From an uncultured virus (IMG/VR IMGVR_UViG_3300025678_000930) (taxonomy: Duplodnaviria > Heunggongvirae > Uroviricota > Caudoviricetes): a stretch of DNA of 32,028 nucleotides. The notes under the pieces were generated by a model that was given only the letters and a program-made list of their open reading frames with translations, did not search any database and was not told where the DNA came from. Location: the IMG/VR virus record IMGVR_UViG_3300025678_000930. One strand, given 5' to 3'. Made by a program: the position numbers and the translations under genes. Below are positions 742 to 25,374 of the stretch, one piece after another. Each line of letters begins with the position of its first letter. Positions within the stretch are counted from its first letter, which is position 1.

Positions 742-1920
742 ATGATTACTTATAAAACAGCTGAAAGTGTCTGTGCCGGACATCCCGATAAGCTTTGCGA
801 CCTCATTGCTGACAATATTCTAGATGCTTGTATGCATAAGGATAAAGCTTCACGTGTGGCCTGCGAGGTCATGGCTACCAAAGGCAAGATTATCGTAGCG
901 GGCGAAATCACCTGCAGCGGTAAAGTGGACATCCGTTTCATCGTAAAAAATGTACTTCGAGAGGTCGGATACAATCCGTGGAAATTCACAGTATTTGTAT
1001 TCGTGCACCATCAAAGCGCAGACATTGAAGCGGGTGTTAATAATGCACTTGAAGCAAGAAATGGTATCAATAATCCATATGGTTCTGTCGGCGCCGGAGA
1101 CCAAGGTACGGTTTACGGTTATGCAAGCAATGAAACCAGTAAGAACCTGCCCCTGCCACTGGTACTTTCCCATCGCATCGTAAAGCGCATTGATGACTGC
1201 CGCAAAGGAAAACTCATCAAAGGAATTCTGCCGGACGGAAAAGCACAGGTCACGGTAGAATATGAGGATGGTAAACCAAAGCGTGTGAAAACCATTGTAG
1301 TTTCAGTCCAGCATGATAAGGACAAAACCCAGGAAGAATTGAAGTCGGATATCCTTAGTAATGTACTTTGGCAGTGCTTTGAGGATTTTCCATTTGATGA
1401 TGATACTGAAATCCTTATTAATCCCTCAGGCAGATTTGTCGAAGGTGGTCCCGCTGCCGACACAGGCTTGACCGGCAGAAAAATCATGGTCGATACCTAC
1501 GGTGGCCTTGCATCCCACGGGGGAGGTGCCCTTTGCGGTAAGGACCCGACCAAGGTTGACCGAAGTGGTGCATATATGGCACGCTACATTGCAAAGAACA
1601 TTATTTGGAGCGGTCTTGCAGAGGAATGTGAGGTCGCTCTTTCTTATGCCATAGGAAAGGCAAATCCTGTGGCGGTTGATGTGACTTCCTTTGGTACAAG
1701 CAAACTCGCAGATGATCAGCTTTCCTATATTGTGCAGGAAGTATTTAACCTCCGACCTGCTGCAATCATCGAAAAATTACACTTAAGAAATGTCATCTAT
1801 TCCGATACGTCGGTTTACGGACATTTTAATTCAAGTCTGTTCCCCTGGGAGAATGTCAATATGTACACGAATTTAAGAAAGGCGGCTGAAATATATGCAG
1901 ATAGAAAAACTGAAAACTGA
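742..1920 (+). CDS. metK: S-adenosylmethionine synthetase (methionine adenosyltransferase)
   Basis: Signature motifs ESVxxGHPDK, GAGDQG, LINPSGRFVEGGPAADTGLTGRK, GGGALCGKDPTKVDRS; full length, 392 aa. Confidence 0.97.
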   Translation: MITYKTAESVCAGHPDKLCDLIADNILDACMHKDKASRVACEVMATKGKIIVAGEITCSGKVDIRFIVKNVLREVGYNPWKFTVFVFVHHQSADIEAGVNNALEARNGINNPYGSVGAGDQGTVYGYASNETSKNLPLPLVLSHRIVKRIDDCRKGKLIKGILPDGKAQVTVEYEDGKPKRVKTIVVSVQHDKDKTQEELKSDILSNVLWQCFEDFPFDDDTEILINPSGRFVEGGPAADTGLTGRKIMVDTYGGLASHGGGALCGKDPTKVDRSGAYMARYIAKNIIWSGLAEECEVALSYAIGKANPVAVDVTSFGTSKLADDQLSYIVQEVFNLRPAAIIEKLHLRNVIYSDTSVYGHFNSSLFPWENVNMYTNLRKAAEIYADRKTEN

Positions 1921-3139
1921 GTTGTTGATTCCAGCCGACTATAATCCACGTAAAGACTTGAAACCCGGTGACCCTGAATACGAAAAGCTGAAACGTTCCA
2001 TCGAGCAGTTCGGTTATGTTGAACCCGTTATATGGAATAAGACCACATCTCATGTTGTCGGTGGCCATCAGCGGTTGAAGGTGCTGTTAGATTTAGGCTT
2101 AACCGAAGTCGAGTGTGTGGTTATTGAAATGGATAAGGAAAAAGAGAAGGCGCTCAATATCGCCCTCAATAAAATAAGCGGTGACTGGGATAAAGATAAG
2201 TTGATGCTTTTGATTGCTGATTTGCAAGGTGCAGACTTTGACGTATCACTCACAGGATTCGAACCTGCTGAACTGGATGCACTATTTAAGGACTCGCTCA
2301 AGGACGGTATTCATGATGATGACTTCGATGTGGATGCTGAACTTAAAAAGCCTGCACTCACCAAACAAGGTGATGTTTGGAAACTCGGACAGCACAGGCT
2401 CGTCTGTGGTGATTCCACCAAGGCTGATACTTTTACACTTCTGATGGACGGCAAGCTCGCAAACCTTGTTGTAACGGACCCTCCGTACAATGTCAACTAT
2501 GAAGGATCGGCGGGTAAAATCAAAAACGATAACATGGAAAATGAAGCATTCTACGATTTTCTGCTGGCGGCTTTTCAAAACACCGAAGCAGCAATGGCGA
2601 AGGATGCTTCTATTTATGTGTTCCATGCAGATACTGAAGGTTTAAATTTCAGAAAGGCATTTTCTGATGCAGGTTTCTACCTCTCAGGTACTTGCATTTG
2701 GAAAAAGCAGTCACTGGTTCTTGGCCGCTCGCCTTATCAATGGCAGCATGAACCTGTTCTTTTCGGTTGGAAGAAGTCCGGCAAACATAACTGGTATGCC
2801 GATAGAAAGCAGACTACCATATGGGAATTTGAAAAGCCGAAGAAAAATGCAGACCATCCGACCATGAAACCGGTAGCTTTGGTTGCATACCCGATTCTCA
2901 ATAGCAGCTTGTCTAATTGTATCGTACTCGATCCCTTCGGTGGAAGTGGTTCTACCCTGATCGCCTGTGAACAGACGGACAGGATATGCCATACAATTGA
3001 ACTGGATGAAAAGTACTGTGATGTAATTGTAAAGAGGTATATCGAGCAGGTTGGAAATTCTAATGGTGTATTTCTTTTGAGAGATGCCTCGGAAATCCGA
3101 TACAGTGACCTGCCGGGGGTGAGTGCTGATGAAACATAA
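1895..3139 (+). CDS. ParB/Srx N-terminal domain fused to N6-adenine/N4-cytosine DNA methyltransferase (beta class)
   Basis: N-terminal YNPRK..FGYVEPVIWN..GGHQRL (ParB-like); catalytic DPPY precedes SAM-binding LDPFGGSGST; HPTMKPV. Confidence 0.93.
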   Translation: MQIEKLKTELLIPADYNPRKDLKPGDPEYEKLKRSIEQFGYVEPVIWNKTTSHVVGGHQRLKVLLDLGLTEVECVVIEMDKEKEKALNIALNKISGDWDKDKLMLLIADLQGADFDVSLTGFEPAELDALFKDSLKDGIHDDDFDVDAELKKPALTKQGDVWKLGQHRLVCGDSTKADTFTLLMDGKLANLVVTDPPYNVNYEGSAGKIKNDNMENEAFYDFLLAAFQNTEAAMAKDASIYVFHADTEGLNFRKAFSDAGFYLSGTCIWKKQSLVLGRSPYQWQHEPVLFGWKKSGKHNWYADRKQTTIWEFEKPKKNADHPTMKPVALVAYPILNSSLSNCIVLDPFGGSGSTLIACEQTDRICHTIELDEKYCDVIVKRYIEQVGNSNGVFLLRDASEIRYSDLPGVSADET

Positions 3140-4994
3140 ACTTACCCTTGGTTCTCTATTTGATGGCAGCGGAGGTTTTCCCTTGGGTGGTCTACTCTGT
3201 GGCATCGAGCCATTATGGGCATCCGAAATTGAACCCTTTCCTATAAGGGTTACTACAAAAAGGTTGCCTTTTATGAAACACTATGGTGATGTTTCCATCC
3301 TGGATGGCAGTAAGATGGAACCGGTTGATATTATAACATTTGGCTCACCTTGCCAGGATATGTCCGTGGCAGGTAAGCGTAATGGCTTGGACGGAGAGCG
3401 TTCAAGTCTTTTTTATGAGGCAATTAGAATTGTAAAAGAAATGAGGTGTGCTACAGATGGCGAATATCCAAGATACATCGTCTGGGAAAATGTGCCGGGT
3501 GCTTTCTCCTCAAACAAAGGAGAGGACTTCAGATGTGTCCTTGAAAGCATCTGTCACATCAAAGATAAAACCTTATCAGTTCCTAAAGCTGATAAATGGA
3601 GGCAAGCAGGTAATATCGTGGGAGATGATTTCTCCATTGCCTGGCGAGTGCTTGACGCTCAATACTGGGGAGTTCCCCAACGAAGAAAACGCATCTTCCT
3701 TGTCGCAGATTTTGCAGGTGGGAGTGCCGGAGAAATACTATTTAAGTCAGAAGGCTTGTCTGGGTATTCTAAGGAGAGCTTCCGCTCGTGGCAAGGAGCT
3801 GCCGATTGTTTTGAAAACGGCATTAGAGAGACAGGCACAAGCAGTGTGATTTTAAATGATCAAGGTGGCAATCGTATGGATATCACAGAAGATGTCACTT
3901 GTACTCTTCGAGCAGAGGCACATCATCCACCCTGTGTTATGGATGCAGCTGTTTTTGATAATCATGGGAGAGATACTCGCTTTACGGGACCGATTGATGT
4001 TGCACCAACAATATCTGCCACTTATGGAACAGGTGGCAATAATCAGCCTTTTGTGGTTGGTGATACACCGAAAACCCTCAAAATCCGTTGTGGCTGTGAG
4101 GGTGGTGGTAAAGGTGCACTTATCCAGAATAATAAATCAGCAACACTGTCATGCAATAATGACCAGACATTATTTGTTCCGAAAGCCTATGGTATCTGTT
4201 CAAAAGACAGCAATTCCATGAAATCATCCAATCCCAACAGTGGTGTGTATGAGGCTGATACTTCACGCACCATAGATGGAAATGGTGGAAATCCTTCCTG
4301 CAATCAAGGCGGAATTGCTATTGTGGAAAGTTATGCTTTGCAAGGCTCCATGATAGGCAGAAATGATAAGAACGGTCCACAGGGGGATGGAGTTAATGAG
4401 GATATTAGCTTTACTCTAAACACAGTTGATAAGCACGCTGTTGTTTATGCTATTGATAGAGAATCTTACAACTGTGGCCAAAACTATGCAAGGAATCTTG
4501 GGATTACAGAAGACGGAATATCATCAACACTAAATGCACAAGGGCCAAGTGCTGTGGCAACTCCTACCTACTCTTCAAGCAAGGCATCATTTTTTACTGC
4601 CGCTGAAGAAGAACTTGCAAATACGCTGGTTGCTACTGACTATAAAGACCCTCCGCTTATAAATGATACAGACGGCACTCTTTACACGGTCAGAAGATTA
4701 ACTCCGACCGAATGTGCAAGACTTCAAGGTTTCCCGGACGGGTGGTGCAGTGACCTTGGAACAGAAAACCCAACAATGGATGATTTACGCACATGGTATG
4801 GAATATTCGAAACTCATCGTAAGGTTACGGGAGGTTCATCTAAACCTAAGACCTTAAAGCAGATATCTAAGTGGCTTAAAGACCCGCATTCAGATTCTGC
4901 GGAATATAAGATGTGGGGCAACGGAGTGGCACTGCCTTGCGTATGTTTTGTTTTGTCCGGCATTGTGTTATCCATGCAAGATACCGCCGAATAA
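3129..4994 (+). CDS. C5-cytosine DNA methyltransferase with very long variable region (candidate multispecific)
   Basis: Motif I LFDGSGG, IV GSPCQ, VI WENVPG, VIII PQRRKRIF, IX RRLTPTECARLQGFP, X YKMWGNGV; ATG at 3129 preferred over GTG at 3123. Confidence 0.95.
   Translation: MKHKLTLGSLFDGSGGFPLGGLLCGIEPLWASEIEPFPIRVTTKRLPFMKHYGDVSILDGSKMEPVDIITFGSPCQDMSVAGKRNGLDGERSSLFYEAIRIVKEMRCATDGEYPRYIVWENVPGAFSSNKGEDFRCVLESICHIKDKTLSVPKADKWRQAGNIVGDDFSIAWRVLDAQYWGVPQRRKRIFLVADFAGGSAGEILFKSEGLSGYSKESFRSWQGAADCFENGIRETGTSSVILNDQGGNRMDITEDVTCTLRAEAHHPPCVMDAAVFDNHGRDTRFTGPIDVAPTISATYGTGGNNQPFVVGDTPKTLKIRCGCEGGGKGALIQNNKSATLSCNNDQTLFVPKAYGICSKDSNSMKSSNPNSGVYEADTSRTIDGNGGNPSCNQGGIAIVESYALQGSMIGRNDKNGPQGDGVNEDISFTLNTVDKHAVVYAIDRESYNCGQNYARNLGITEDGISSTLNAQGPSAVATPTYSSSKASFFTAAEEELANTLVATDYKDPPLINDTDGTLYTVRRLTPTECARLQGFPDGWCSDLGTENPTMDDLRTWYGIFETHRKVTGGSSKPKTLKQISKWLKDPHSDSAEYKMWGNGVALPCVCFVLSGIVLSMQDTAE
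3457..3849 (+). CDS. Nested alternative-frame ORF within the C5-MTase, resembling the N-terminal part of M.EcoHK31I polypeptide beta
   Basis: Open +1 frame; GAGGTG (3443-3448) lies 8 nt before ATG 3457; GECLTLNTGEFPNEENASSLSQIL...YYLSQKACLGILRRA...LP resembles the recalled EcoHK31I beta sequence. Confidence 0.7.
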   Translation: MANIQDTSSGKMCRVLSPQTKERTSDVSLKASVTSKIKPYQFLKLINGGKQVISWEMISPLPGECLTLNTGEFPNEENASSLSQILQVGVPEKYYLSQKACLGILRRASARGKELPIVLKTALERQAQAV

Positions 4995-5093: not shown

Positions 5094-5903
5094 ATGAAGA
5101 TTAATTACAATGTTACAGGTCCAAAACGAAAATTGCTGGTGGCAGCAATAAGCCAGGAACTAAATGCTCCAACAAAATACCTCGGAGCACCTACTTTTGC
5201 TTATGAGGTAGGCGGCTACCATATCGACAAGAATGGGATGCTCGAGGGTGAGGACAATCCTAACTTAGTTGCTGACCTGCAGGGATTGCATGACTTCAGA
5301 GCGATTACAGAAGAGTACGACACTCCACTTCCAGAATCAGAACCGGAAGCAGTTCCGGAGGATATCCAAATTCCTTACGAGGCAGCTCTTGGTGGCAGGG
5401 TCAGTCCTTACTGTGATTATGAGGAGCCACCCACATATGCAGAACCTGAGCAAAGTGGTGAGATCGAAACTAACCGTTTGACCATCGATTTGCCAAGGTC
5501 GGCATTCACCGATGTGGCTCTTGAAAACCTCAAGCGATTGGTAGAAAGCAAATCGTCTTTAATAAAAAAGGCTCTAGCTGCTGATTGCATCCCCATAATA
5601 ACAAACGAAGAAACAGTCAGTTTCCCCTGGTTTCAAGGGGAGCTTGTAGCTGAAGAGGTCAAAGCCTACACGCATTTTGTTACCGCACTCTGTGAGATGG
5701 CAAAAACACAGCAGAGAGTCAATGCCACCGAAAAGCAAGTCGAAAATGAGAAGTACGCTTTTCGCTGTTTTCTAATCCGACTCGGTTTCGTCGGCTCAGA
5801 ACACAAAGCAGAACGCAAAATCCTGCTAAAGAATCTATCAGGCAATGCTGCCTTTAAGAATGGGGCTCCACCAAAACCCGAGGAGGTAATGGCTGATGAA
5901 TAA
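5094..5903 (+). CDS. Phage 'virulence-related' hypothetical protein; degenerate amidoligase paralog
   Basis: C-terminus ENEKYAFRCFLIRLGFVG...LSGNAAFK aligns with the C-terminus of the amidoligase at 6272; catalytic motifs absent. Confidence 0.75.
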   Translation: MKINYNVTGPKRKLLVAAISQELNAPTKYLGAPTFAYEVGGYHIDKNGMLEGEDNPNLVADLQGLHDFRAITEEYDTPLPESEPEAVPEDIQIPYEAALGGRVSPYCDYEEPPTYAEPEQSGEIETNRLTIDLPRSAFTDVALENLKRLVESKSSLIKKALAADCIPIITNEETVSFPWFQGELVAEEVKAYTHFVTALCEMAKTQQRVNATEKQVENEKYAFRCFLIRLGFVGSEHKAERKILLKNLSGNAAFKNGAPPKPEEVMADE

Positions 5904-6271: not shown

Positions 6272-7171
6272 ATGTTAAGAACAAGGTTCGGAATTGAAAT
6301 TGAGTTCACAGGAATAACAAGAAACGAAGCGGCGAAAGTCACAGCCGACTACCTAAACGGAACGGTTGTGAGCACAGGAGACTATTACGATACCAAAAAG
6401 GTCACAGCCACCGACGGGCGAGTTTGGAAAATCATGAGCGACGGCAGCATCTCCTGCCAGAAGAAACAAGGACGGCGGAAGGTTGCAGCAACCAAAGAAT
6501 ATAGCGTGGAGCTGGTAAGTCCCATCCTGACCTACCAAGAGGACATTAAAACACTGCAGGAACTGATACGCAGGCTACGCGAGGCAGGAGCTTTCACAAA
6601 CAACTCCTGCGGAATCCATATCCACTTGGACGGAGCAGACCATACCTCAAGGAGCATACGAAACTTTGTAAACATCATCGCAAGCAAGAACGACCTTTTT
6701 TACAAGGCTTTGCAGATAGAACCTGAACGAATTCGTTACTGCAAAAAAATGGATGAGATTCTGGTGGAAAAAATCAATCGCAAGAAGCCAAAAACGCTGG
6801 CACAAATTGAGAGCCTTTGGTATGAGGGCTACAGCGAAAGTACCACCAGGCATTACCATTCAAGCCGATACCATTTCCTTAACCTGCACAGCTTTTTCAA
6901 CGGAAATCACACGGTAGAGCTTAGAGGTTTCAACAGCGAACTTCACGCAGGCAAGGTTAGAAGCTACATTGTTCTTGCCCTTGCACTGAACAACCAAGCA
7001 CTGACACAAAAGTGTGCATCGGCAAAGAAACCACAGGTGGAGAATGAAAAGTTTGCAATGCGGACCTACCTCAACCGAATCGGTTTCATCGGCGAGGAAT
7101 TCGCAAACTGCCGTGAACACTTGACCGCCCACTTGGACGGCTCGGCAGCTTGGCGGTTTCGGGCAGCCTAA
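6272..7171 (+). CDS. Putative amidoligase (Amidoligase_2, COOH-NH2 ligase superfamily)
   Basis: FGIEIEF, W...SDGSI, VELVSPIL, NSCGIHIH, RYHFLNLHS, TVELRGFN motifs. Confidence 0.9.
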   Translation: MLRTRFGIEIEFTGITRNEAAKVTADYLNGTVVSTGDYYDTKKVTATDGRVWKIMSDGSISCQKKQGRRKVAATKEYSVELVSPILTYQEDIKTLQELIRRLREAGAFTNNSCGIHIHLDGADHTSRSIRNFVNIIASKNDLFYKALQIEPERIRYCKKMDEILVEKINRKKPKTLAQIESLWYEGYSESTTRHYHSSRYHFLNLHSFFNGNHTVELRGFNSELHAGKVRSYIVLALALNNQALTQKCASAKKPQVENEKFAMRTYLNRIGFIGEEFANCREHLTAHLDGSAAWRFRAA

Positions 7172-7206
7172 AGGGTTGCCCAGCAAATATAAGGAGGATA
7201 AGGTCT

Positions 7207-7656
7207 ATGAGTAAAACATTCTATCTCGCCTATGGCTCAAACCTCAACCTTGAGCAAATGGCGTACCGTTGCCCCACAGCAAAGCCTATCGGCACGGTTG
7301 TTTTAAAGGATTACCAGTTATTGTTCAGAGGTGGACACGGCGGTGCTGTGGCAACCGTGGAGCCTTTAAAAGGCAAGACAGTCCCATGCTTGCTATGGGA
7401 GATTACCCTGGCTGATGAAACAGCACTTGACCGCTATGAGGGCTATCCATTCCTTTATCGAAAGGAAATGGTCAAAGTCAAATATGGCAAAAAGAACGTA
7501 GAAACCATGGTGTACATCATGAACGAAGGCAGGCCTCTTGGAACTCCAAGCTGCTATTATTACAGTGTTATCTTAGAGGGATATAAGAGTGCAAACTTCG
7601 ATATCGGTATTCTAAAACAGGCCGTAGAGGATTCAAAGGAGGACAAAAATGGATAA
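7207..7656 (+). CDS. Gamma-glutamylcyclotransferase (AIG2-like) family protein
   Basis: YLAYGSNL, RCPTA, LDRYEGYP..Y motifs; AGGAGG RBS before ATG 7207. Confidence 0.92.
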   Translation: MSKTFYLAYGSNLNLEQMAYRCPTAKPIGTVVLKDYQLLFRGGHGGAVATVEPLKGKTVPCLLWEITLADETALDRYEGYPFLYRKEMVKVKYGKKNVETMVYIMNEGRPLGTPSCYYYSVILEGYKSANFDIGILKQAVEDSKEDKNG

Positions 7657-15592: not shown

Positions 15593-17770
15593 ATGGCGGA
15601 TAATTTTGGCTTAAAGATTGGCATTGAGGGCGAAAAAGAATTCAAGAAAGCTCTTTCTGATATTAATCAATCATTCAAAGTGCTAGGAAGCGAGATGAAA
15701 CTTGTATCTTCGGAATTTGATAAAAATGATAAAAGTGTTCAGGCTATGGCTGCCAGAAACGAAATTCTGAACAAGTCAATCGATGCACAGAAAGATAAAA
15801 TATCCACGCTCGAATCCGCCTTGAAGAATGCCTCCGAGAGTTTCGGCGAAAATGACCGCCGTACCCAAAATTGGGCTATTCAGCTGAATAATGCAAAGGC
15901 TGAACTTAATGGCATGGAACGAGAACTGGAGCAGTCTGCTGAAAGTGCAGATGAACTAGGGGATGAGTTGAAAGAAGCAGGCAATGACGCTGAGAATTCC
16001 GGTGGGAAGTTTGAAAAACTAGGTGGCATTCTCAAGGGTGTCGGTGCAGCGATGGGTGCTGCAACTGTTGCCGCAGGAGCTGCAGCCTTCAAACTGGGCA
16101 AAGAGGTCATTGAGCAATTCGGTGAACTGGAACAGAACTTGGGTGGCTCAGAAGCGGTTTTTGGAAAATACGCTGATTCCATCCAAAAGACCGGTGAAGA
16201 AGCGTACAAAAACCTTGGACTCTCCCAAAGTGACTACTTGGCAACCGCCAATAAGATGGGCGCTCTGTTCCAAGGCTCCGGTATCGAACAGCAGAAGTCG
16301 CTTGAACTGACCGAGAAAGCAATGCAACGAGCCGCCGACATGGCATCTGTCATGGGAATTGATATGTCCATGGCGATGGAAGCAGTCACAGGTGCAGCAA
16401 AAGGCAATTTTACTATGATGGATAACCTGGGTGTAGCTATGAATGCCACAAACATCGAGGCTTACGCACTAGCTAAGGGATTGGATTTTACTTGGAATAG
16501 TGCAACACAGGCAGAAAAAGCGGAAGTTGCTATGCAAATGTTCTTTGAGAACACCCAGCAGTATGCCGGAAACTTCGCTAGGGAGTCCACAGAAACCATT
16601 GCGGGTTCCATTGGACTATTCCAAGCAGCCCTTGGCTCTTTTACAGCAGGTCTTGGTAATGCCAATGCTGACATGACGAACTTAACTGGAAATCTTGTCG
16701 ATGCTTTTCAAGCAGTGGTCAAAAATATTGTACCTGTAATAGAAAACATAGTGGCTGCATTACCTGCGGCAATGGATGCCATTTTATCGGCAATCGCTGA
16801 GTTGTTGCCTACACTTCTTGAAACCGTCACGGAATTGTTTACACAGGTGCTTAATACCATCCTTACTCTTTTACCTGAACTTATCCCCGCGGCGGTAGAT
16901 GCTGTTATGACAATTGTGGGAGCTCTCATAGACAACCTTCCTCTTCTCATTGATGCTGCGGTGCAATTGATAACAGCGCTTGTAGAAGGTATCGGATTGG
17001 CACTACCGGAACTAATTCCCGCTGCGATTGAGGCAATTATAACCATCGTGCAGGGGTTACTTAATAGCATGGATAAAATCCTCGAAGCGGCATTTGCCAT
17101 CATAAAAGGTCTAGCTGAAGGCATATTGAACGCCCTTCCTGAATTAATAGAAGCTTTACCTCAAATCATTACGAGCATTATCAACTTCATAACCGACAAT
17201 CTGCCTGCCATTATTGCTATGGGTGTTGACCTCACCGTTCAGCTTGCCGTGGGTCTGATTAAAGCAATACCTCAACTTGTAGCGGCCATTCCGCAGATTA
17301 TTTCTGCAATCGTGGGAGGACTTGGTAAAGCAGTTGGTGCTGTCTTTGAAATCGGTAAAAACATCGTTACTGGATTATGGGAAGGTATTAAATCTCTCGG
17401 TTCGTGGATTACCGATAAGGTGAGTGGGTTCTTTTCCGGCATTACGAACAGTGTAAAAGGAATGCTTGGAATCAAGTCTCCCTCCTTGGTATTTGCAGGA
17501 ATCGGTGAAAATATGGGACTTGGTATCGGAGTCGGGTTTGACCATGTTATGGATAAAGTTGCAAGAGATATGCAGTCCTCTATCCCTACTGATTTTGATG
17601 TAGATTCAAACCTAAACATGAATGGTGGTATCAGCGGAATTGAACAGAATGCAAAATCCGTTGTTGAACATACAGGAATTATTGAAGTTAGGGGAGTGAA
17701 CAGCAAGAATGAACTCACCGGAGTAGTGGAAATCATAATGGACCAATTCAGAAGGGAGGCGAGAATCTGA
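15593..17770 (+). CDS. Tape measure protein
   Basis: MADNFGLKIGIEGEKEFK, coiled coil, Ala/Ile/Leu-rich quasi-repeats (LPELIPAA), LGIKSPSLVF. Confidence 0.92.
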   Translation: MADNFGLKIGIEGEKEFKKALSDINQSFKVLGSEMKLVSSEFDKNDKSVQAMAARNEILNKSIDAQKDKISTLESALKNASESFGENDRRTQNWAIQLNNAKAELNGMERELEQSAESADELGDELKEAGNDAENSGGKFEKLGGILKGVGAAMGAATVAAGAAAFKLGKEVIEQFGELEQNLGGSEAVFGKYADSIQKTGEEAYKNLGLSQSDYLATANKMGALFQGSGIEQQKSLELTEKAMQRAADMASVMGIDMSMAMEAVTGAAKGNFTMMDNLGVAMNATNIEAYALAKGLDFTWNSATQAEKAEVAMQMFFENTQQYAGNFARESTETIAGSIGLFQAALGSFTAGLGNANADMTNLTGNLVDAFQAVVKNIVPVIENIVAALPAAMDAILSAIAELLPTLLETVTELFTQVLNTILTLLPELIPAAVDAVMTIVGALIDNLPLLIDAAVQLITALVEGIGLALPELIPAAIEAIITIVQGLLNSMDKILEAAFAIIKGLAEGILNALPELIEALPQIITSIINFITDNLPAIIAMGVDLTVQLAVGLIKAIPQLVAAIPQIISAIVGGLGKAVGAVFEIGKNIVTGLWEGIKSLGSWITDKVSGFFSGITNSVKGMLGIKSPSLVFAGIGENMGLGIGVGFDHVMDKVARDMQSSIPTDFDVDSNLNMNGGISGIEQNAKSVVEHTGIIEVRGVNSKNELTGVVEIIMDQFRREARI

Positions 17771-19528: not shown

Positions 19529-21556
19529 ATGAATTTTAATGCAAGCGTAAAGCTTCACAATAAATTTGAAATGTATGTCAAGGACATACGAACCGGCAGG
19601 GAGCGTCTTGTAGGCACTGCATACAACATGGTGCTAAATGCAATGTGGACACAGATTATATCTGACAGGAGAAGTCCATTTGACTACATCTGCTATGGCA
19701 GAGGAACTGGGGAGTTAACTCCAGACAGGACGGCTCTTTTTTCCCAAATTGCACAAGTCAGTTCAACCCGTGTAGAGGAAGTATATTCAAGTGACTCGGG
19801 ATATATAAAGGAGAAAATCGAACTCTCCCCAAGTACGGCAGTTGGAGAAACTATAACAGAAGTTGGTATTAGGGGCTATAGCCGGCTGGTGACTCATGCA
19901 CTCCTTAAGGATGCTGAAGGAAACCCTATTAGTTTCACTAAGACTGATACTGATGTTGTGACCATTTATGCAACGCTCTACTGTAAGATTTCAGTCACTT
20001 CACCATTGGGGTTCAGTCAATCCCAGGTGTCTTATGGAGCTGCATATTACATCCTAAACTATGGGTACATCACAACAAATATAAAAGTCGGTAGAAATCC
20101 AATGCCGCTTGATGTTGATTCAATCAACGCTGCAGGCATTAATGACGCATCTGCAGCATCCAAATCTGCAAGCCGTATTTCTTTTGATGTTGCCACAGCC
20201 ACAGAATCTTATAAGGTACGGTTTGAGATAGCAGATGCCAATCTTTTTATCAAGGAAATCCAGGTTGCGGATACCGCCTCCATTATCGTGCCTGAGAGTT
20301 CACTCATTGGCAAGGTTCTCTATGAAAATGTACCGCTTGGCACCGGTGATAATATAAAGACAAAATTTTTGCTCCCCAGCCCGTACATTGAGACACCGCT
20401 CGTAGATGTAAAGGTTAATTCAGTGGCAGTATCCTATACGATAGAAAGAAAGCCAAGGATTGCACTATCATGTGGTACTAATCATAGTAACGGCGGCTCA
20501 GGTTTCAGTTCTTATCCAAGCGTAGTATATCCCACACCTTGGGGGAATAAGTGGATTGGAAATGGCGAGTATAAGGTGATGTATGGAAAGGTACATCGTG
20601 GTTATTTAAGGCAATACGGGATGTTTAGTCCATCAGTTGGCTCGTTTCCCGATAAGCCACATTATAGTTCCAAATCATCCAGTCAGCCGATATTTCTTAA
20701 TACCGAATCAATATGTGTACTTCCTGCAAATGTATGGGTTGATTATTCAACAGACCAGGCAAAGTCGATTCTATCAAGATTTGGAGATATAACACCATCA
20801 ACAGGTGTAATGACCCAAGATGACCAGTTTTTGATTTACTCTGACAACAGTGCAGGGTATGTTAGGCTGGCAAAAAAAGCAGCTGATGGTAAATATAATC
20901 GTGTGGGGACTTCCCAAGCGGGTGGCTCTGGTAGATACACCTATCAGAATAACTTCATCACAGCCGATGGAAACCATGCAGTATTATCGGGTTACCATGG
21001 TTTGGTTATTGTCTCGCTTGATAGAATAAATGAAACAATTACTCAGGAGGTATACGACTCAACTTATCAGATTGCCGTCTGTAACTATAATGGCAAAATC
21101 TATACCTTTGCAGCAGGCAATTATAAGATTTATGAATTGGTGAGCGGTGTGTTTACACTGACCTACTCAGGCTCATATGGTAACACAATGTCGCTCTATG
21201 GTGGTGGTCTTGTAGGAGATGGACTCTGTTTGATCAGTGATTCCAATATAGTCAATGCAAAATTCATTAAACTGCTGCCAGATGGTGTGCAGTACTATGT
21301 ACCACAATCGCCCCTTTCACATTCCGTTACGAGTGTAACCAATATCATTACTGATGGCAGTTCCGTTTTCTATTGCGGCATTGATCGTTCAGCCAGAACC
21401 TTCTATGTGGATGATTCGGAGGTATTTGTGACATTGGCAACACCGCCAACAGATACAGAATCCGTTACAGCATCCTATAAAACTGAGGGCATCCATAAAA
21501 CAGACCAATTCGTTCTGGATGTCACATTCTCGGTTAGTTATGCGGAGGGCGTATGA
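19529..21556 (+). CDS. Putative tail fiber / receptor-binding protein
   Basis: N-terminal fiber-anchor-like segment (GRGTGELTPDRTALF..GETITEVGI..LVTHALLKDAEGNPISFTKT); Ser/Gly/Tyr-rich beta-type central region. Confidence 0.65.
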   Translation: MNFNASVKLHNKFEMYVKDIRTGRERLVGTAYNMVLNAMWTQIISDRRSPFDYICYGRGTGELTPDRTALFSQIAQVSSTRVEEVYSSDSGYIKEKIELSPSTAVGETITEVGIRGYSRLVTHALLKDAEGNPISFTKTDTDVVTIYATLYCKISVTSPLGFSQSQVSYGAAYYILNYGYITTNIKVGRNPMPLDVDSINAAGINDASAASKSASRISFDVATATESYKVRFEIADANLFIKEIQVADTASIIVPESSLIGKVLYENVPLGTGDNIKTKFLLPSPYIETPLVDVKVNSVAVSYTIERKPRIALSCGTNHSNGGSGFSSYPSVVYPTPWGNKWIGNGEYKVMYGKVHRGYLRQYGMFSPSVGSFPDKPHYSSKSSSQPIFLNTESICVLPANVWVDYSTDQAKSILSRFGDITPSTGVMTQDDQFLIYSDNSAGYVRLAKKAADGKYNRVGTSQAGGSGRYTYQNNFITADGNHAVLSGYHGLVIVSLDRINETITQEVYDSTYQIAVCNYNGKIYTFAAGNYKIYELVSGVFTLTYSGSYGNTMSLYGGGLVGDGLCLISDSNIVNAKFIKLLPDGVQYYVPQSPLSHSVTSVTNIITDGSSVFYCGIDRSARTFYVDDSEVFVTLATPPTDTESVTASYKTEGIHKTDQFVLDVTFSVSYAEGV

Positions 21557-22326
21557 TTACTTGGCATTTAGGTGGTGCAGTATCTTATCCCGATGAATTG
21601 CTACAGTACGCACTTCAGTTAATGGAACAAGGTTACCAGGTGCAAGTCTATGATGCTGCATTTACATCTCTTTGGAATGGTGGGCGGATACCTTTTAATA
21701 GAAACACCGGATACAAGGATTTTATAGCCACCATTGAACTATTCAACTCTCATGGGATAGGTGTGGATGCGTCCTTTTCTGGAATTGTTGAGGAAGACGA
21801 ACTTGGCGATTACGAGTGTAATGCTGTGCTTGAGAAATTGGCAAGAAACCAAAGGAATGGGGTGATTGTTTCTGAACAAAGGCTTTATGACTATATCCGG
21901 AGATACTACCCTGAGTTTCCAATCACCTCATCGATAACGTCGGTGATTCCCAAAATAACAGGTTGCAACTATTATGCGGTCAACCCAGATTTCAACACAC
22001 ATCTGGAGGAGCTGGCAGGGTTGGGGTTTGATAAACTGCAAATTCTTGTGAACGAAAACTGCTATCAGAACTGTGCGGAGCGTGGTCAACATTACAAGCT
22101 CTTGTCCCGCCAGATGAAGCGTTTTGATAAGGCTTACGAGGATACCTGCATCTGTAGGAATCAAAACGATGATAGATTTAAAATGAGACTGGGTTTGGAG
22201 CAGATTAAGGCTTTGCAGGAGTCGGGAATTTGTCATTTCAAACTGCAGGGAAGGCAAGATCATTTGGAAAATGAAACCGGCCATTACATTAGAAATGTAA
22301 TTTTGAAGGCCAATGGAGGTGAATAA
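21553..22326 (+). CDS. Peptidase U32-like (TIM-barrel, putative Fe-S) protein
   Basis: LWNGGR, NGVIVS...YIRRYYPEFPITSSIT, ILVNENCYQNC..R..HY, TCIC, GICHFKLQGR resemble U32 motifs (e.g. LKIEGR). Confidence 0.6.
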   Translation: MITWHLGGAVSYPDELLQYALQLMEQGYQVQVYDAAFTSLWNGGRIPFNRNTGYKDFIATIELFNSHGIGVDASFSGIVEEDELGDYECNAVLEKLARNQRNGVIVSEQRLYDYIRRYYPEFPITSSITSVIPKITGCNYYAVNPDFNTHLEELAGLGFDKLQILVNENCYQNCAERGQHYKLLSRQMKRFDKAYEDTCICRNQNDDRFKMRLGLEQIKALQESGICHFKLQGRQDHLENETGHYIRNVILKANGGE

Positions 22327-22327
22327 C

Positions 22328-22510
22328 ATGAGTACATGGCGAGTTGGAACGGTCGTTTGCAGCGGCTGTGGCACAGTTTTAAGTATTAAATCCAGATCTG
22401 ACAAAATGAAGTGCTACCTATGTGATACTCCTGTTGATTTGACAGATTGCCCAGTTATAGAAGAACCAGATAGTACAAAGGAATATGATACTCAAGGTAG
22501 TCAAGATTAA
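22328..22510 (+). CDS. Small zinc-ribbon / rubredoxin-like protein
   Basis: CSGCG...CYLCD (two CxxC) plus acidic tail; GGAGGTG RBS at 22315-22321. Confidence 0.7.
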   Translation: MSTWRVGTVVCSGCGTVLSIKSRSDKMKCYLCDTPVDLTDCPVIEEPDSTKEYDTQGSQD

Positions 22511-22540
22511 CAATAGATTTAATGGAACGGAGGTGATTCT

Positions 22541-23902
22541 ATGCAGCTTATTTTTGAGTATGACGGCATAATCGGCGGTGGGCTGTACCCAGATTTTATT
22601 CAGTTTCCAAAGACTGAGGGGCAACTCTTTTTTATCAATAACGGTCTGCTTTACGGAACACCCAGCAATAGACTGAATGGTGACTTTTCAGCACCCGTGT
22701 GGCAGGATACGGTTTTGATTAATCCAAAGGGAGATACGGAATTAAGCAATTTAGAACTCAAGTCCCTCTCCGGATTTGGGATTGTCGGTTGCTTCAGAAC
22801 TCCATATGCACAGAAACTGCTCATCCATGAGTATATGTTTGAAATGGATCGCTATCTGCATTCCGGCAGCATAAAGTGTTCCATGGACACACCGATTGCA
22901 TCTTTTACACTCAGCCTTGATAATCCCATTAATGAAAATCCAGAATACGAAGGCAATGTTGCAATATCCGAAAAGTCCAGCCTGCTGTCTCCTGGCAGTA
23001 AAGTAGTGTTTGAGTTTAGTATAGGTGACAGTGAACCCTACCCAATGGGTACTTTCTATGTTGACCGTAGCAATTTTCAACTCCTCGGAGAATCCGTCAG
23101 TGTAGATGGACGAAATATTATCGGTAAGGCATTGGGTGATCAGAGCTTTGATGAAGATAATGTTTACCCTTATCAAATATTGCACCAGATGCTTAAAGAC
23201 ATCCTCTATAAAGCAAACATCAGCTCAGATGAAATGCTGGTGCAGAATACGACCTTATCCGCAGGGTATCTTTTTGATTTTAATATGAGTTTTCTTGGAG
23301 GAATTACTGAAGTTTTGAAAGCCTTGGATAACTGGCAAATCAAAGAAATAGTCGATGGTACAGTTGTTATTGGTGATGCTTCTTTTGCGGGATTTACAAG
23401 GAATTCAAGTTATGTATTCCAGCGAGACAAAGACATTTTTAGCAGGAACATTATCAAGGATGATCAGGATGCATATCGCCGGGTTTGTGTCCACAACCGG
23501 GATTTCAGCATCAAGGTGTATCGGGATGTACAGACATATACAGGATGGAATCTACAAGCTAACAAGACCCTTTATATCAATGTACCAGAAGGAACGACTC
23601 TCCTAGATGCAGAAAATTATGCTGCCCAGATTGCTGATAATCTTCAGTATGTGGGTAAGATTGAAAGCTTTACAGGACCCTTTAGGCCTCAAGTAATCCT
23701 GGGTGATGAAGCAGTTATTACTGACAACGATGGCTCAACTAGCCTTGGACTCATAACTGAGATTACCCACCGTTTTGGGAAAGATGGCTTTTATACCGAT
23801 TTCACTGTAGACAGTGGAGGCAAACTGGGTAAAGGCAGACTCAGTGACTATATTGGAAGAATCACAAAAGACAGATCAAGCAGCAGCAGAGTTTATGAAT
23901 AA
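22541..23902 (+). CDS. Putative tail hub / baseplate protein (gp27/XkdQ-like)
   Basis: C-terminal GPFRPQVILGDEAVI...ITEITHRFGKDGFYTDFTV resembles hub-protein C-termini; strong RBS. Confidence 0.55.
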   Translation: MQLIFEYDGIIGGGLYPDFIQFPKTEGQLFFINNGLLYGTPSNRLNGDFSAPVWQDTVLINPKGDTELSNLELKSLSGFGIVGCFRTPYAQKLLIHEYMFEMDRYLHSGSIKCSMDTPIASFTLSLDNPINENPEYEGNVAISEKSSLLSPGSKVVFEFSIGDSEPYPMGTFYVDRSNFQLLGESVSVDGRNIIGKALGDQSFDEDNVYPYQILHQMLKDILYKANISSDEMLVQNTTLSAGYLFDFNMSFLGGITEVLKALDNWQIKEIVDGTVVIGDASFAGFTRNSSYVFQRDKDIFSRNIIKDDQDAYRRVCVHNRDFSIKVYRDVQTYTGWNLQANKTLYINVPEGTTLLDAENYAAQIADNLQYVGKIESFTGPFRPQVILGDEAVITDNDGSTSLGLITEITHRFGKDGFYTDFTVDSGGKLGKGRLSDYIGRITKDRSSSSRVYE

Positions 23903-24013: not shown

Positions 24014-24424
24014 ATGAAAGAAATTTGGAACTGGAGTCAGGCAGTTATAGCAGCGATTGGAGGTTGGCTTGGATACTTTCTCGGAGGTTGGGATGGCTTT
24101 TTATATGCACTTGTGGCATTTGTTGTCATCGACTATATTACCGGTCTTATGTGCGCAGTATTGGATAAAAAACTATCCAGCGAAGTCGGTTTTCGTGGCA
24201 TTTTTAAGAAAGTGCTTATATTCTCACTTGTGGCCATTGGGCATATCATCGATCAGAGCGTAATAGGAGAAGGTTCTGTGATTAGAACAGCAGTAATCTT
24301 TTTCTATCTCTCTAACGAGGGTATTTCAATTTTAGAAAACACTGCCAGAATCGGTCTTCCTGTGCCGCAAAAGCTGAAGGATATTTTAGAACAGCTTCAT
24401 AACAAAAGCGACAAGGAGGTCTGA
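24014..24424 (+). CDS. Phage holin (toxin secretion/phage lysis family, holin_4_1)
   Basis: GGWLGYFLGGWDG, DYITG, LSSEVGFRGIFKK, FFYLSNEGISILEN, GLPVP.KLK; AAGGAGG before ATG 24014. Confidence 0.93.
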   Translation: MKEIWNWSQAVIAAIGGWLGYFLGGWDGFLYALVAFVVIDYITGLMCAVLDKKLSSEVGFRGIFKKVLIFSLVAIGHIIDQSVIGEGSVIRTAVIFFYLSNEGISILENTARIGLPVPQKLKDILEQLHNKSDKEV

Positions 24425-24427
24425 TAT

Positions 24428-25327
24428 ATGAATCTTCGAAAACTGATCCTTACAAACAATGCCTGCTACAAAGCTGGTAGAACCATTACACCCAAAGGTA
24501 TTATGGTTCATTCCACCGGTGCAAACAACCCGTGGCTTAAGCGATATGTAGGACCCGATGACGGTCTTTTAGGTAGAAACCAATATAACAACCATTGGAA
24601 CAAAGATAAGCCGGATGGCAGGCAGGTATGTGTTCATGCTTTCATAGGCAAACTGGAGGATGGAACAATTGCAACATACCAGACGTTGCCATGGAACTAT
24701 CGAGGCTGGCACGCAGGAGGCAGTGCAAACAATACCCATATAGGATTTGAGATTTGTGAGGATGGTCTTTCGGACAACACCTACTTTGGCAAGGTGTACC
24801 GGGAGGCCGTTGAACTTTGTATATATCTTTGCAAGCTCTATGGCTTAACTGAGGAAAACATCATCTGCCACAGTGAAGGATACAAGAAGGGAAATGCGAG
24901 TAATCATGGTGACGTCATGCACTGGTTTCCTAAACATGGCAAGTCTATGGATGACTTTCGGGAAGATGTGAAGATGGCACTAAAACCTATAAACCCAACA
25001 CCTAAAATGGGAGATATTCTATATCGTGTGAGAAAAAACTGGGATGAGTCCCAATCACAAAAGGGAGCATATAGGGAGTTAGAAAATGCCATACGCTGTG
25101 TAGATGACAACCCAGGGTATAACGTTTTTGATGAATATGGAAAAGTTGTATACTCAGGAAAATCTACTCTGCCTTATGAGATATACACCGTAGTTAAAGG
25201 TGATTCCATTTGGAAGATTGCTAAAGAGCAACTTGGTAATGGAGAAAGATATACAGAGATTAAGACACTCAACGGGCTGACTTCAAATATCATATATGCC
25301 GGACAGAAACTGAAAATTCCTAAATAA
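24428..25327 (+). CDS. Endolysin: N-acetylmuramoyl-L-alanine amidase (Amidase_2) with C-terminal LysM
   Basis: IMVHSTG, GWHAGG.AN..HIGFEICE, IICHSEG...SNHGD; LysM YTVVKGDSIWKIA...IYAGQKLKIP. Confidence 0.93.
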   Translation: MNLRKLILTNNACYKAGRTITPKGIMVHSTGANNPWLKRYVGPDDGLLGRNQYNNHWNKDKPDGRQVCVHAFIGKLEDGTIATYQTLPWNYRGWHAGGSANNTHIGFEICEDGLSDNTYFGKVYREAVELCIYLCKLYGLTEENIICHSEGYKKGNASNHGDVMHWFPKHGKSMDDFREDVKMALKPINPTPKMGDILYRVRKNWDESQSQKGAYRELENAIRCVDDNPGYNVFDEYGKVVYSGKSTLPYEIYTVVKGDSIWKIAKEQLGNGERYTEIKTLNGLTSNIIYAGQKLKIPK

Positions 25328-25331
25328 GCTT

Positions 25332-25374
25332 ATGCCCTTGGAGGTCTAAAAACTTCCGAGGGCATTATTTTTTT
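25332..25374 (+). terminator. Intrinsic terminator after the endolysin
   Basis: 13-bp stem ATGCCCTTGGAGG/CTTCCGAGGGCAT, 8-nt loop, then TATTTTTTT. Confidence 0.8.

Follow-up and report, generated by a model that had tools for sequence, protein, structure and literature searches.

U32 proteins have only recently been recognised as a class of O2-independent iron-sulphur (Fe-S) hydroxylases, and very few substrates have been assigned to them. The characterised members are described as O2-independent hydroxylases with a [4Fe-4S] cluster, which is bound by four Cys in the arrangement CX6CX15CX3/4C (PMC6747719, PMC11574389). The structure of Mk0906 (PDB 5D88) is given in PMC11574389 without an assigned function. 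In this study we analysed the gene of a U32-like protein of 257 amino acids (aa) at positions 21553..22326 (+) of a 32,028-nucleotide (nt) stretch of DNA from an uncultured virus of the Caudoviricetes (IMG/VR record IMGVR_UViG_3300025678_000930); the whole of this stretch is called the window. An original prediction, made from the sequence of the window, had combined this gene with a following 60-aa mini-protein bearing two CxxC pairs to an enzyme and carrier for the upstream tail fibre; its description of characterised U32 members as Fe-S proteins for O2-independent hydroxylation agrees with PMC6747719 and PMC11574389. The reading we favour, to which we give about even chances, is that of an optional late-operon gene for a metalloenzyme of a three-Cys U32 branch, which would work in the cytoplasm and have neither the fibre nor the Zn-ribbon mini-protein as its partner.

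Like UbiU/UbiV, RlhA and TrhP, the family of the 257-aa protein has a predicted (beta/alpha)8 barrel, a Cys cluster in an insert after beta7, a K-x-x-G-R motif on beta8 and tandem or paired copies among its members. Unlike them, it shows three Cys and a His in a CX3CX20-56C pattern instead of CX6CX15CX3/4C (PMC6747719), and the window protein is 257 aa only, lacking the C-terminal U32 extension. A further difference is that the phage late operon encodes no SCP2/UbiT-like or other known partner. In the literature searched, neither a U32 branch with three Cys nor a phage tail operon containing a U32-like gene was found to be described, and the main text of the paper on Candidatus (Ca.) Heliusvirales (PMC11283538) contains 0 occurrences of U32 or collagenase. 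What our analysis delimits is a large unnamed sister branch of 1548 cluster representatives, some of them paired or fused, with a putative site of three Cys and a His. One temperate gut-phage sub-lineage appears to have captured a copy of this branch and keeps it under purifying selection in its late operon. This copy encodes a small protein of one domain, and near-isogenic genomes occur in nature with and without it, so that it might serve as a convenient handle on the function of the branch.

Kinship with U32 proteins

The Pfam family Peptidase_U32 (PF01136, IPR001539) matches the 257-aa protein with 27.3 bits against a gathering cut-off of 22.4, best over residues 90-142. All U32-like motifs that had been quoted for the protein are present: NGVIVS (residues 102-107), YP (119-120), SSIT (126-129), NENC (167-170) and C174, HY (180-181), CIC (199-201) and FKLQGR (229-234). 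No match was found in PHROGs, NCBIfam or PADLOC, phmmer against PDB sequences gave nothing meaningful, and the family profile retrieved 5D88 alone from the PDB sequences, at E 2.2. The open reading frame (ORF) is more than a chance product because PF01136 exceeds its cut-off, 21 close homologues exist and the ratio of nonsynonymous to synonymous substitution rates (dN/dS) is 0.09-0.27.

An AF2 model built from 150 diverse homologues (pLDDT 91.9, pTM 0.91) consists of eight beta/alpha units that form a single barrel, and no additional domain was seen in it; a shallow alignment had given a mediocre model (pLDDT 69). Foldseek against the PDB ranked the U32 domain 5D88 first (E 2.9e-6, template modelling (TM) scores 0.55/0.57), with unrelated TIM barrels starting at E 1e-4. 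VIA-align over 48,161 representative chains likewise placed 5D88 on top, at Z 17.2 (root-mean-square deviation 3.2, 212 residues), with the runner-up at Z 12.9. The U32 peptidase domain of Mk0906, the only U32 structure solved so far, is the best PDB structural match of the model, yet the two share 11-13% identity. The U32-like TIM barrel that had been proposed was in this way recovered by both structure searches and by the Pfam score.

Profile comparisons point in the same direction. When the family profile was aligned by hhalign to a profile made of 30 canonical U32 sequences of Spirochaetota, the local mode gave Prob 96.1 and E 3.2e-9 over 141 columns and the global mode Prob 97.4 and E 3.4e-11 over 272 columns; single canonical U32 sequences were matched weakly (Prob 20-47). 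The global alignment pairs NExC170 with the canonical HGAxC, C199 with the last canonical Cys and FKLQGR with KIEGR, and the Cys cluster of the family lies in the same beta7-beta8 insert as that of canonical U32 proteins. As judged from profiles and a predicted model, the 257-aa protein is a genuine, though divergent, U32-superfamily protein with a (beta/alpha)8 barrel.

Among viral proteins the best structural match was a 'Peptidase' of Escherichia phage OLB35 (UniProt A0A3G3MCS7, BFVD; 269 aa, E 1.2e-9, TM 0.70/0.68). At TM 0.70 it is structurally nearer to the 257-aa model than 5D88 is, with 15% identity; tblastn searches, made with the window protein and with a family member, did not retrieve it. 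Because of this match, at least one cultured phage would encode a U32-like barrel of similar size.

The structural matches also bear on a different view of the protein, in which the virion would carry it on the tail as a peptidase ('collagenase-like') or depolymerase that acts on the host envelope during adsorption, comparable to TIM-barrel hydrolases of other tails. U32 was originally named as a peptidase family, the gene lies between those of the fibre and a probable hub protein, and generic TIM-barrel hydrolases as well as phage K gp155 are found among the structural matches at Z ~10-11. These hydrolases, however, stand 6 Z units under 5D88, which is the level of any TIM barrel, and the model offers nothing beyond the barrel. 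Moreover, the gene is dispensable in close relatives, and its homologues are unremarkable bacterial proteins of one domain, encoded among metabolic or regulatory genes. We consider a virion-borne enzyme very improbable.

A predicted three-cysteine site

A word-indexed search returned 23 proteins, 21 at 69-97% identity (three of them fragments) and two at ~26%. An exhaustive profile search extended the family to the 1548 cluster representatives at E <= 1e-3, with 830 at <= 1e-10 and 133 at <= 1e-30. The phage clade is a single representative in this search and all others are 20-33% identical to the window protein; the next-best rows are representatives of two distant sequences that had been seeded into the profile, and their rank is no sign of closeness. 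Conservation was read from an alignment of 152 rows, comprising the query, six close or distant matches and 145 representatives, from which four proteins of >= 420 aa were omitted. In it C170 is invariant (152 rows), C174 and C199 are each Cys in 151, and H180 is His in 145. Further conserved residues are K230 (150), R234 (151), R45 (146), N90 (146) and S127 (148). C89 is Cys in 77 rows, and C201, which completes the CxC of the earlier motif list, in seven and in the phage clade only; no further column of the alignment reached 25% Cys. The spacing between C174 and C199 ranges from 20 to 56 residues across the family, so that the motif reads CX3CX(20-56)C, and all family-invariant residues are retained in the phage clade. 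The clustered Cys residues that had been foreseen are accordingly a conserved feature of the beta7-beta8 insert, but three of the four, without C201, are what the family has in common. The candidate codons of the metal site span 22060..22155 (+) in the window: C170 at 22060-22062, C174 at 22072-22074, H180 at 22090-22092, C199 at 22147-22149 and C201 at 22153-22155.

Because the family has three invariant Cys as against the canonical four, we regard its members as U32 relatives with a putative site made up of three Cys (plus His). A cluster in which one iron is open or bound by His would fit it, and so would Zn. By analogy with UbiU/UbiV, the U32-like protein would bind a metal centre, with a [4Fe-4S] cluster being favoured. 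An alternative keeps the same fold and accessory status and lets the Cys3-His group bind Zn, either structurally or catalytically, for non-redox hydrolysis, lyase or isomerase chemistry. Cys3His is a common Zn site, and the combination of three invariant Cys with His180 and no fourth conserved Cys would suit it, as would the weak scores of the family against PF01136. On the other hand, the global profile alignment puts the Cys residues on the Fe-S-binding insert of canonical U32 proteins, and a fusion to a HemN-like radical SAM domain found in the family fits anaerobic Fe-S chemistry. In addition, the tandem-fused pairs resemble the UbiU-UbiV heterodimer (PMC6747719). We judge a Zn protein to be possible but unlikely.

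An optional gene at a variable junction

In the window the U32-like gene follows a 675-aa tail fibre gene (19529..21556, +), which matches phrog_4176 'tail fiber protein' at E 2.1e-11 over residues 13-159. The N-terminal ~155 aa of this fibre are common to the other fibre alleles of the lineage and its C-terminal part is allele-specific. The ATG of the U32-like ORF (21553) lies within GTATGA and overlaps the last fibre codon and stop by 4 nt (ATGA); its own stop is TAA at 22324-22326. The ribosome-binding site (RBS) of the next gene, GGAGG at 22315..22319 (+), is situated inside the last codons of the U32-like ORF. This next gene (22328..22510, +) encodes the 60-aa Zn-ribbon mini-protein, CxxC-x14-CxxC with an acidic tail. 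Its ATG at 22328 comes 1 nt past the U32-like stop, and an alternative in-frame ATG upstream, at 22313, would give a mini-protein of 65 aa. The overlap at 21553 and the mini-ORF with its own RBS had been placed exactly by the original prediction. Downstream follows a conserved 453-aa protein (22541..23902, +).

For comparison we used the 20 IMG/VR contigs that carry a homologue of the 453-aa protein and searched them by tblastn with all proteins of the module. The 453-aa homologues are 69-87% identical and are always located between fibre and holin, in 20/20 contigs. The U32-like gene is present on three, the same three that were found with the U32 query itself. Two further contigs (L017/L035 and L021/L038) carry the same fibre allele, with 81% identity over the full 675 aa (fibres of 675/679 aa), and no U32-like gene; there the fibre gene leads directly to a Zn-ribbon gene of the same type (53-57% identity) and then to the 453-aa gene. 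The junction alignment shows that in these two contigs only a spacer of 18 nt, which bears the RBS, separates the fibre stop from the ribbon ATG. The window has this RBS-spacer-ATG stretch too, but there it supplies the final codons and stop of the U32-like ORF. By comparison with the U32-less relatives, where the stretch comes straight after the fibre stop, the window holds ~770 bp of extra DNA (or the relatives have a clean deletion) between the fibre stop and the Zn-ribbon RBS.

Mini-ORFs with two Cys pairs lie directly 5' of the 453-aa gene in 13/20 contigs, three with and ten without the U32-like gene. They measure 47-65 aa and fall into three unrelated-looking sequence types; seven of the 20 contigs and the GenBank relative PV036459.1 have none. 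The Cys residues C11, C14, C29 and C32 of the window's mini-protein are invariant in 6/6 aligned copies. The mini-protein matches the zinc-finger domain TIGR01053 with 20.9 bits (cut-off 15.5), several Pfam zinc-ribbon models weakly and below cut-off in every case, and, again weakly, phrog_7826 in PHROGs (E 0.003) and PDC-S64 in PADLOC (E 0.0048). The junction (21556-22541 in the window) is a variable slot for zero, one or two small genes, to which the Zn-ribbon gene appears to belong in its own right and not as a partner of the U32-like gene.

These data speak to the idea that the U32-like enzyme and the Zn-ribbon work as a pair, enzyme and electron carrier, in the maturation or modification of the fibre, such as its hydroxylation. 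The overlap of the start with the fibre stop and the ribbon gene 1 nt downstream would suit such a pair, and all five U32-positive genomes carry this fibre allele and this Zn-ribbon type. Yet the two contigs described above have the same fibre and the same ribbon type without the enzyme, and Zn-ribbon mini-genes occur in ten U32-less contigs where other fibres are present. No Zn-ribbon neighbour of bacterial family members was noted in the loci examined. A four-Cys ribbon, moreover, is typically a Zn site rather than a redox carrier. We therefore see little likelihood in a maturing pair; neither a dedicated ribbon partner nor a strict co-occurrence with the fibre allele, both of which had been expected, held among the relatives. 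Adjacency to a fibre gene and to a CxxC mini-gene does not mean a functional module here.

As a candidate, the module of enzyme plus carrier for the fibre was rejected on the counts for the U32-like gene (3/20 contigs) versus the ribbon (13/20) and on the fibre allele that lacks the enzyme in two. A complex prediction for U32-like protein and Zn-ribbon returned a score of 0.00 in two runs, i.e. 'no answer', and was used neither for nor against binding.

A maximum-likelihood tree of the 453-aa protein (22 rows, L033 dropped as a truncated copy, midpoint rooting only) unites the five U32-positive rows in one clade with support 90/87: the window, the three IMG/VR contigs and a contig binned in a Sphaerochaeta metagenome-assembled genome (MAG). 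U32-less rows are the successive neighbours of this clade. A single gain of the U32-like gene appears as the parsimonious reading of this midpoint-rooted tree. The gene is under purifying selection, with the dN/dS values given above stemming from the six computable of ten pairs (four pairs are dS-saturated, and the window copy is not among the computable ones). Its G+C fraction of 0.43-0.44 is like that of the flanks and gives no signal of foreign composition. By its distribution the 257-aa gene is an optional accessory, present in a single sub-lineage of a group of temperate siphophages.

The contig in the Sphaerochaeta MAG (L007/L076, G001, C20; 56,935 bp) has the same phage module with a U32-like gene 73% identical to that of the window. 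Its length is close to the 57,209 bp of the complete relative PV036459.1, and an entire phage genome may have ended up in this bin; the bin is therefore not good evidence for the host.

Classical morons carry their own promoter and terminator. The U32-like gene resembles the morons and auxiliary genes of phage late operons: it is a single added gene, dispensable and carried by only part of the close relatives, and its site is a variable junction flanked by conserved structural genes; it differs from classical morons in lacking an own promoter and terminator and in overlapping the upstream gene. A relative of the phage group is filed under Ca. Heliusvirales, for which auxiliary metabolic genes and morons have been reported in 78.1% of genomes (PMC11283538).

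Predicted expression with the late operon

The proposed location inside the late structural operon was confirmed, the gene lying within a tail and lysis operon. A consensus scan found 21 promoter-like sites against 17.0 +/- 3.9 expected, which is no enrichment; it revealed no promoter/terminator pair around the U32-like gene and no adjacent terminator-like hairpin, the nearest strong terminator being that at 25332. Because the gene is without its own promoter and terminator and overlaps the fibre stop, the U32-like protein would be produced in the late phase, along with the proteins of tail and lysis. The ATGA overlap is consistent with translational coupling to the fibre gene.

Family members in other contexts

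The sample of bacterial neighbourhoods is small and comprises three gut records, four loci from three genomes and two viral contigs. Three distant matches in the phage collection (27.8-34.2% identity) are unverified gut scaffolds, on which the family members neighbour nitroreductase-family genes (2/3), DUF975, PolA, NadR-like, NUDIX/NrtR, a helix-turn-helix regulator and ABC ATPases; no tail genes stand beside them on these three scaffolds. At E <= 1e-15 the family profile hit 3/121 sampled Planctomycetota genomes and 4/121 Spirochaetota genomes, counts that include two seed genomes and weaker matches closer to canonical U32. One planctomycete (L072:7991-10057, +; G002) encodes a tandem-fused double copy of the three-Cys U32-like domain in a single ORF of 689 aa, among sulfatase and phosphodiesterase-TPR genes and near a Pnkp/Hen1 RNA-repair pair, with a third copy on another contig. 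In a spirochaete the family copy lies beside tannase and regulators. The link of homologues to tail genes that had been expected did not hold, as members elsewhere reside in unrelated bacterial contexts.

A broader-motif scan of 2.9 million viral contigs yielded only two additional members. One (L078:324-1379) immediately precedes genes for a papain-like protease, a GIY-YIG endonuclease and a glucosaminidase; the second (L079:5271-6155) is apparently split into two ORFs and lies beside an EcoRI-type methylase and a GmrSD-like gene. Canonical U32 proteins in the phage collection amount to 44 records, nearly all of which are unannotated fragments, unverified gut scaffolds or bacterial-looking, and these are uninformative.

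Two family members of Ca. Termititenax aidoneus (P0083 and P0112) are four accession numbers apart on one 45-kb contig, one of them carrying a HemN-like radical SAM domain as its fusion partner, the other a GT2 glycosyltransferase; they may belong to a biosynthetic cluster.

It has to be considered whether the phage enzyme could alter a surface glycan of the host that serves as receptor, and in this way block superinfection or the readsorption of progeny to lysed cells. The GT2 fusion close to the radical-SAM-fused member on the Ca. Termititenax contig and the position of the phage gene next to that of the receptor-binding fibre would agree with such a role. This fusion is, however, the only one among the 149 representatives listed, and no glycan genes were met in the other contexts examined. 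The phage cassette contains no transporter, flippase or membrane segment, and expression would come from the late operon and not from the prophage. Glycan modification seems very unlikely to us.

Proposed role of the U32-like protein

In the reading that we favour, cargo of ~770 bp would have been placed exactly between the fibre stop and the RBS of a pre-existing Zn-ribbon gene in one sub-lineage. The U32-like protein would be a soluble (beta/alpha)8 barrel, co-produced late with tail and lysis proteins. C170, C174 and C199, together with H180, might hold a [4Fe-4S] cluster with one iron not ligated by Cys, in analogy to UbiU/UbiV. Possibly the protein catalyses a redox or hydroxylase-type reaction in the cytoplasm, late in infection, with a molecule of the host or of the phage other than the fibre as substrate, and it would confer a conditional benefit rather than take part in virion assembly.

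Several points weigh against this reading. The canonical CX6CX15CX3/4C motif is not present in the 257-aa family, a Cys3-His site suits Zn as well as Fe-S, and the cofactor is not readable from sequence. Most family members are without any Pfam family: this holds for 33 of 39 representatives scanned, among which PF01136 was found in four at E <= 1e-3 and above its cut-off in only one. There is no consistent clue to a substrate, as bacterial neighbours differ (nitroreductase, sulfatase/phosphodiesterase-TPR, tannase) and the fusions to radical SAM and GT2 domains likewise provide none. The polarity of gain versus loss depends on a midpoint-rooted tree and parsimony, and, given translational coupling to the fibre gene, the protein might still serve the virion.

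A narrower proposal specifies the chemistry. According to it, the late-expressed three-Cys U32 protein would be an Fe-S enzyme performing O2-independent, hydroxylation-type modification of macromolecules during virion production in the anoxic gut, with phage DNA, host RNA bases or virion residues as targets. RlhA and TrhP, which reportedly act on C5 of pyrimidines, have been offered as a parallel for DNA or RNA bases, and Mu Mom, which acts late on DNA, as another. In this specific form we hold the proposal to be distinctly unlikely.

Genome layout and further observations

The PHROG matches identify a temperate siphophage, most of whose genome is contained in the window. Its 5' part runs from a small terminase (171) through ParB-like/DNA methyltransferase genes to two amidoligase-like genes and a gamma-glutamyl cyclotransferase. 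The structural part continues with the large terminase (7854), portal, protease, major head protein, connectors and major tail protein. The tape measure (15593-17770, by PHROG match) is followed by ORFs of 122 and 459 aa and then by the fibre gene. From there the order is 675 aa, 257 aa, 60 aa, 453 aa, holin, endolysin, replication genes and serine integrase. Holin (phrog_199) and endolysin (phrog_15001) occupy 24017..25327 (+) at the end of the late operon, and the terminator scan found a strong terminator-like hairpin at 25332-25365, 3' of the endolysin.

The 453-aa protein had been taken for a further tail-type protein. Its conserved position and a lead from a language-model feature search (Atlas), in which gp44/gpP/gpD-like baseplate hub clusters were nearest, agree with this; no match came from Pfam (including a scan of eight members), PHROGs or PDB sequences (searched with a profile). 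From position and this lead only, it is probably a tail or baseplate hub component.

On another contig (L074:7427-8836, -; G131) a PF01136 U32 domain and a C-terminal chorismate mutase domain are joined in one protein of 470 aa, whose gene adjoins those of a DAHP synthase and an NAD-binding reductase. Prephenate has been reported as the O donor of U32 hydroxylases (PMC10990095), and this fusion fits such a donor.

Between its DNA methyltransferase genes and its large terminase, the phage itself carries another set of accessory enzymes. This set consists of the two amidoligase-like genes (phrog_2443) at 5094-5903 and 6272-7171 and the gamma-glutamyl cyclotransferase (phrog_2520) at 7150-7656. 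Upstream of it, at 1895-4994, lie two large DNA methyltransferase genes, the first with a ParB-like N-terminal domain (phrog_498/phrog_620) and the second matching phrog_38038/phrog_116.

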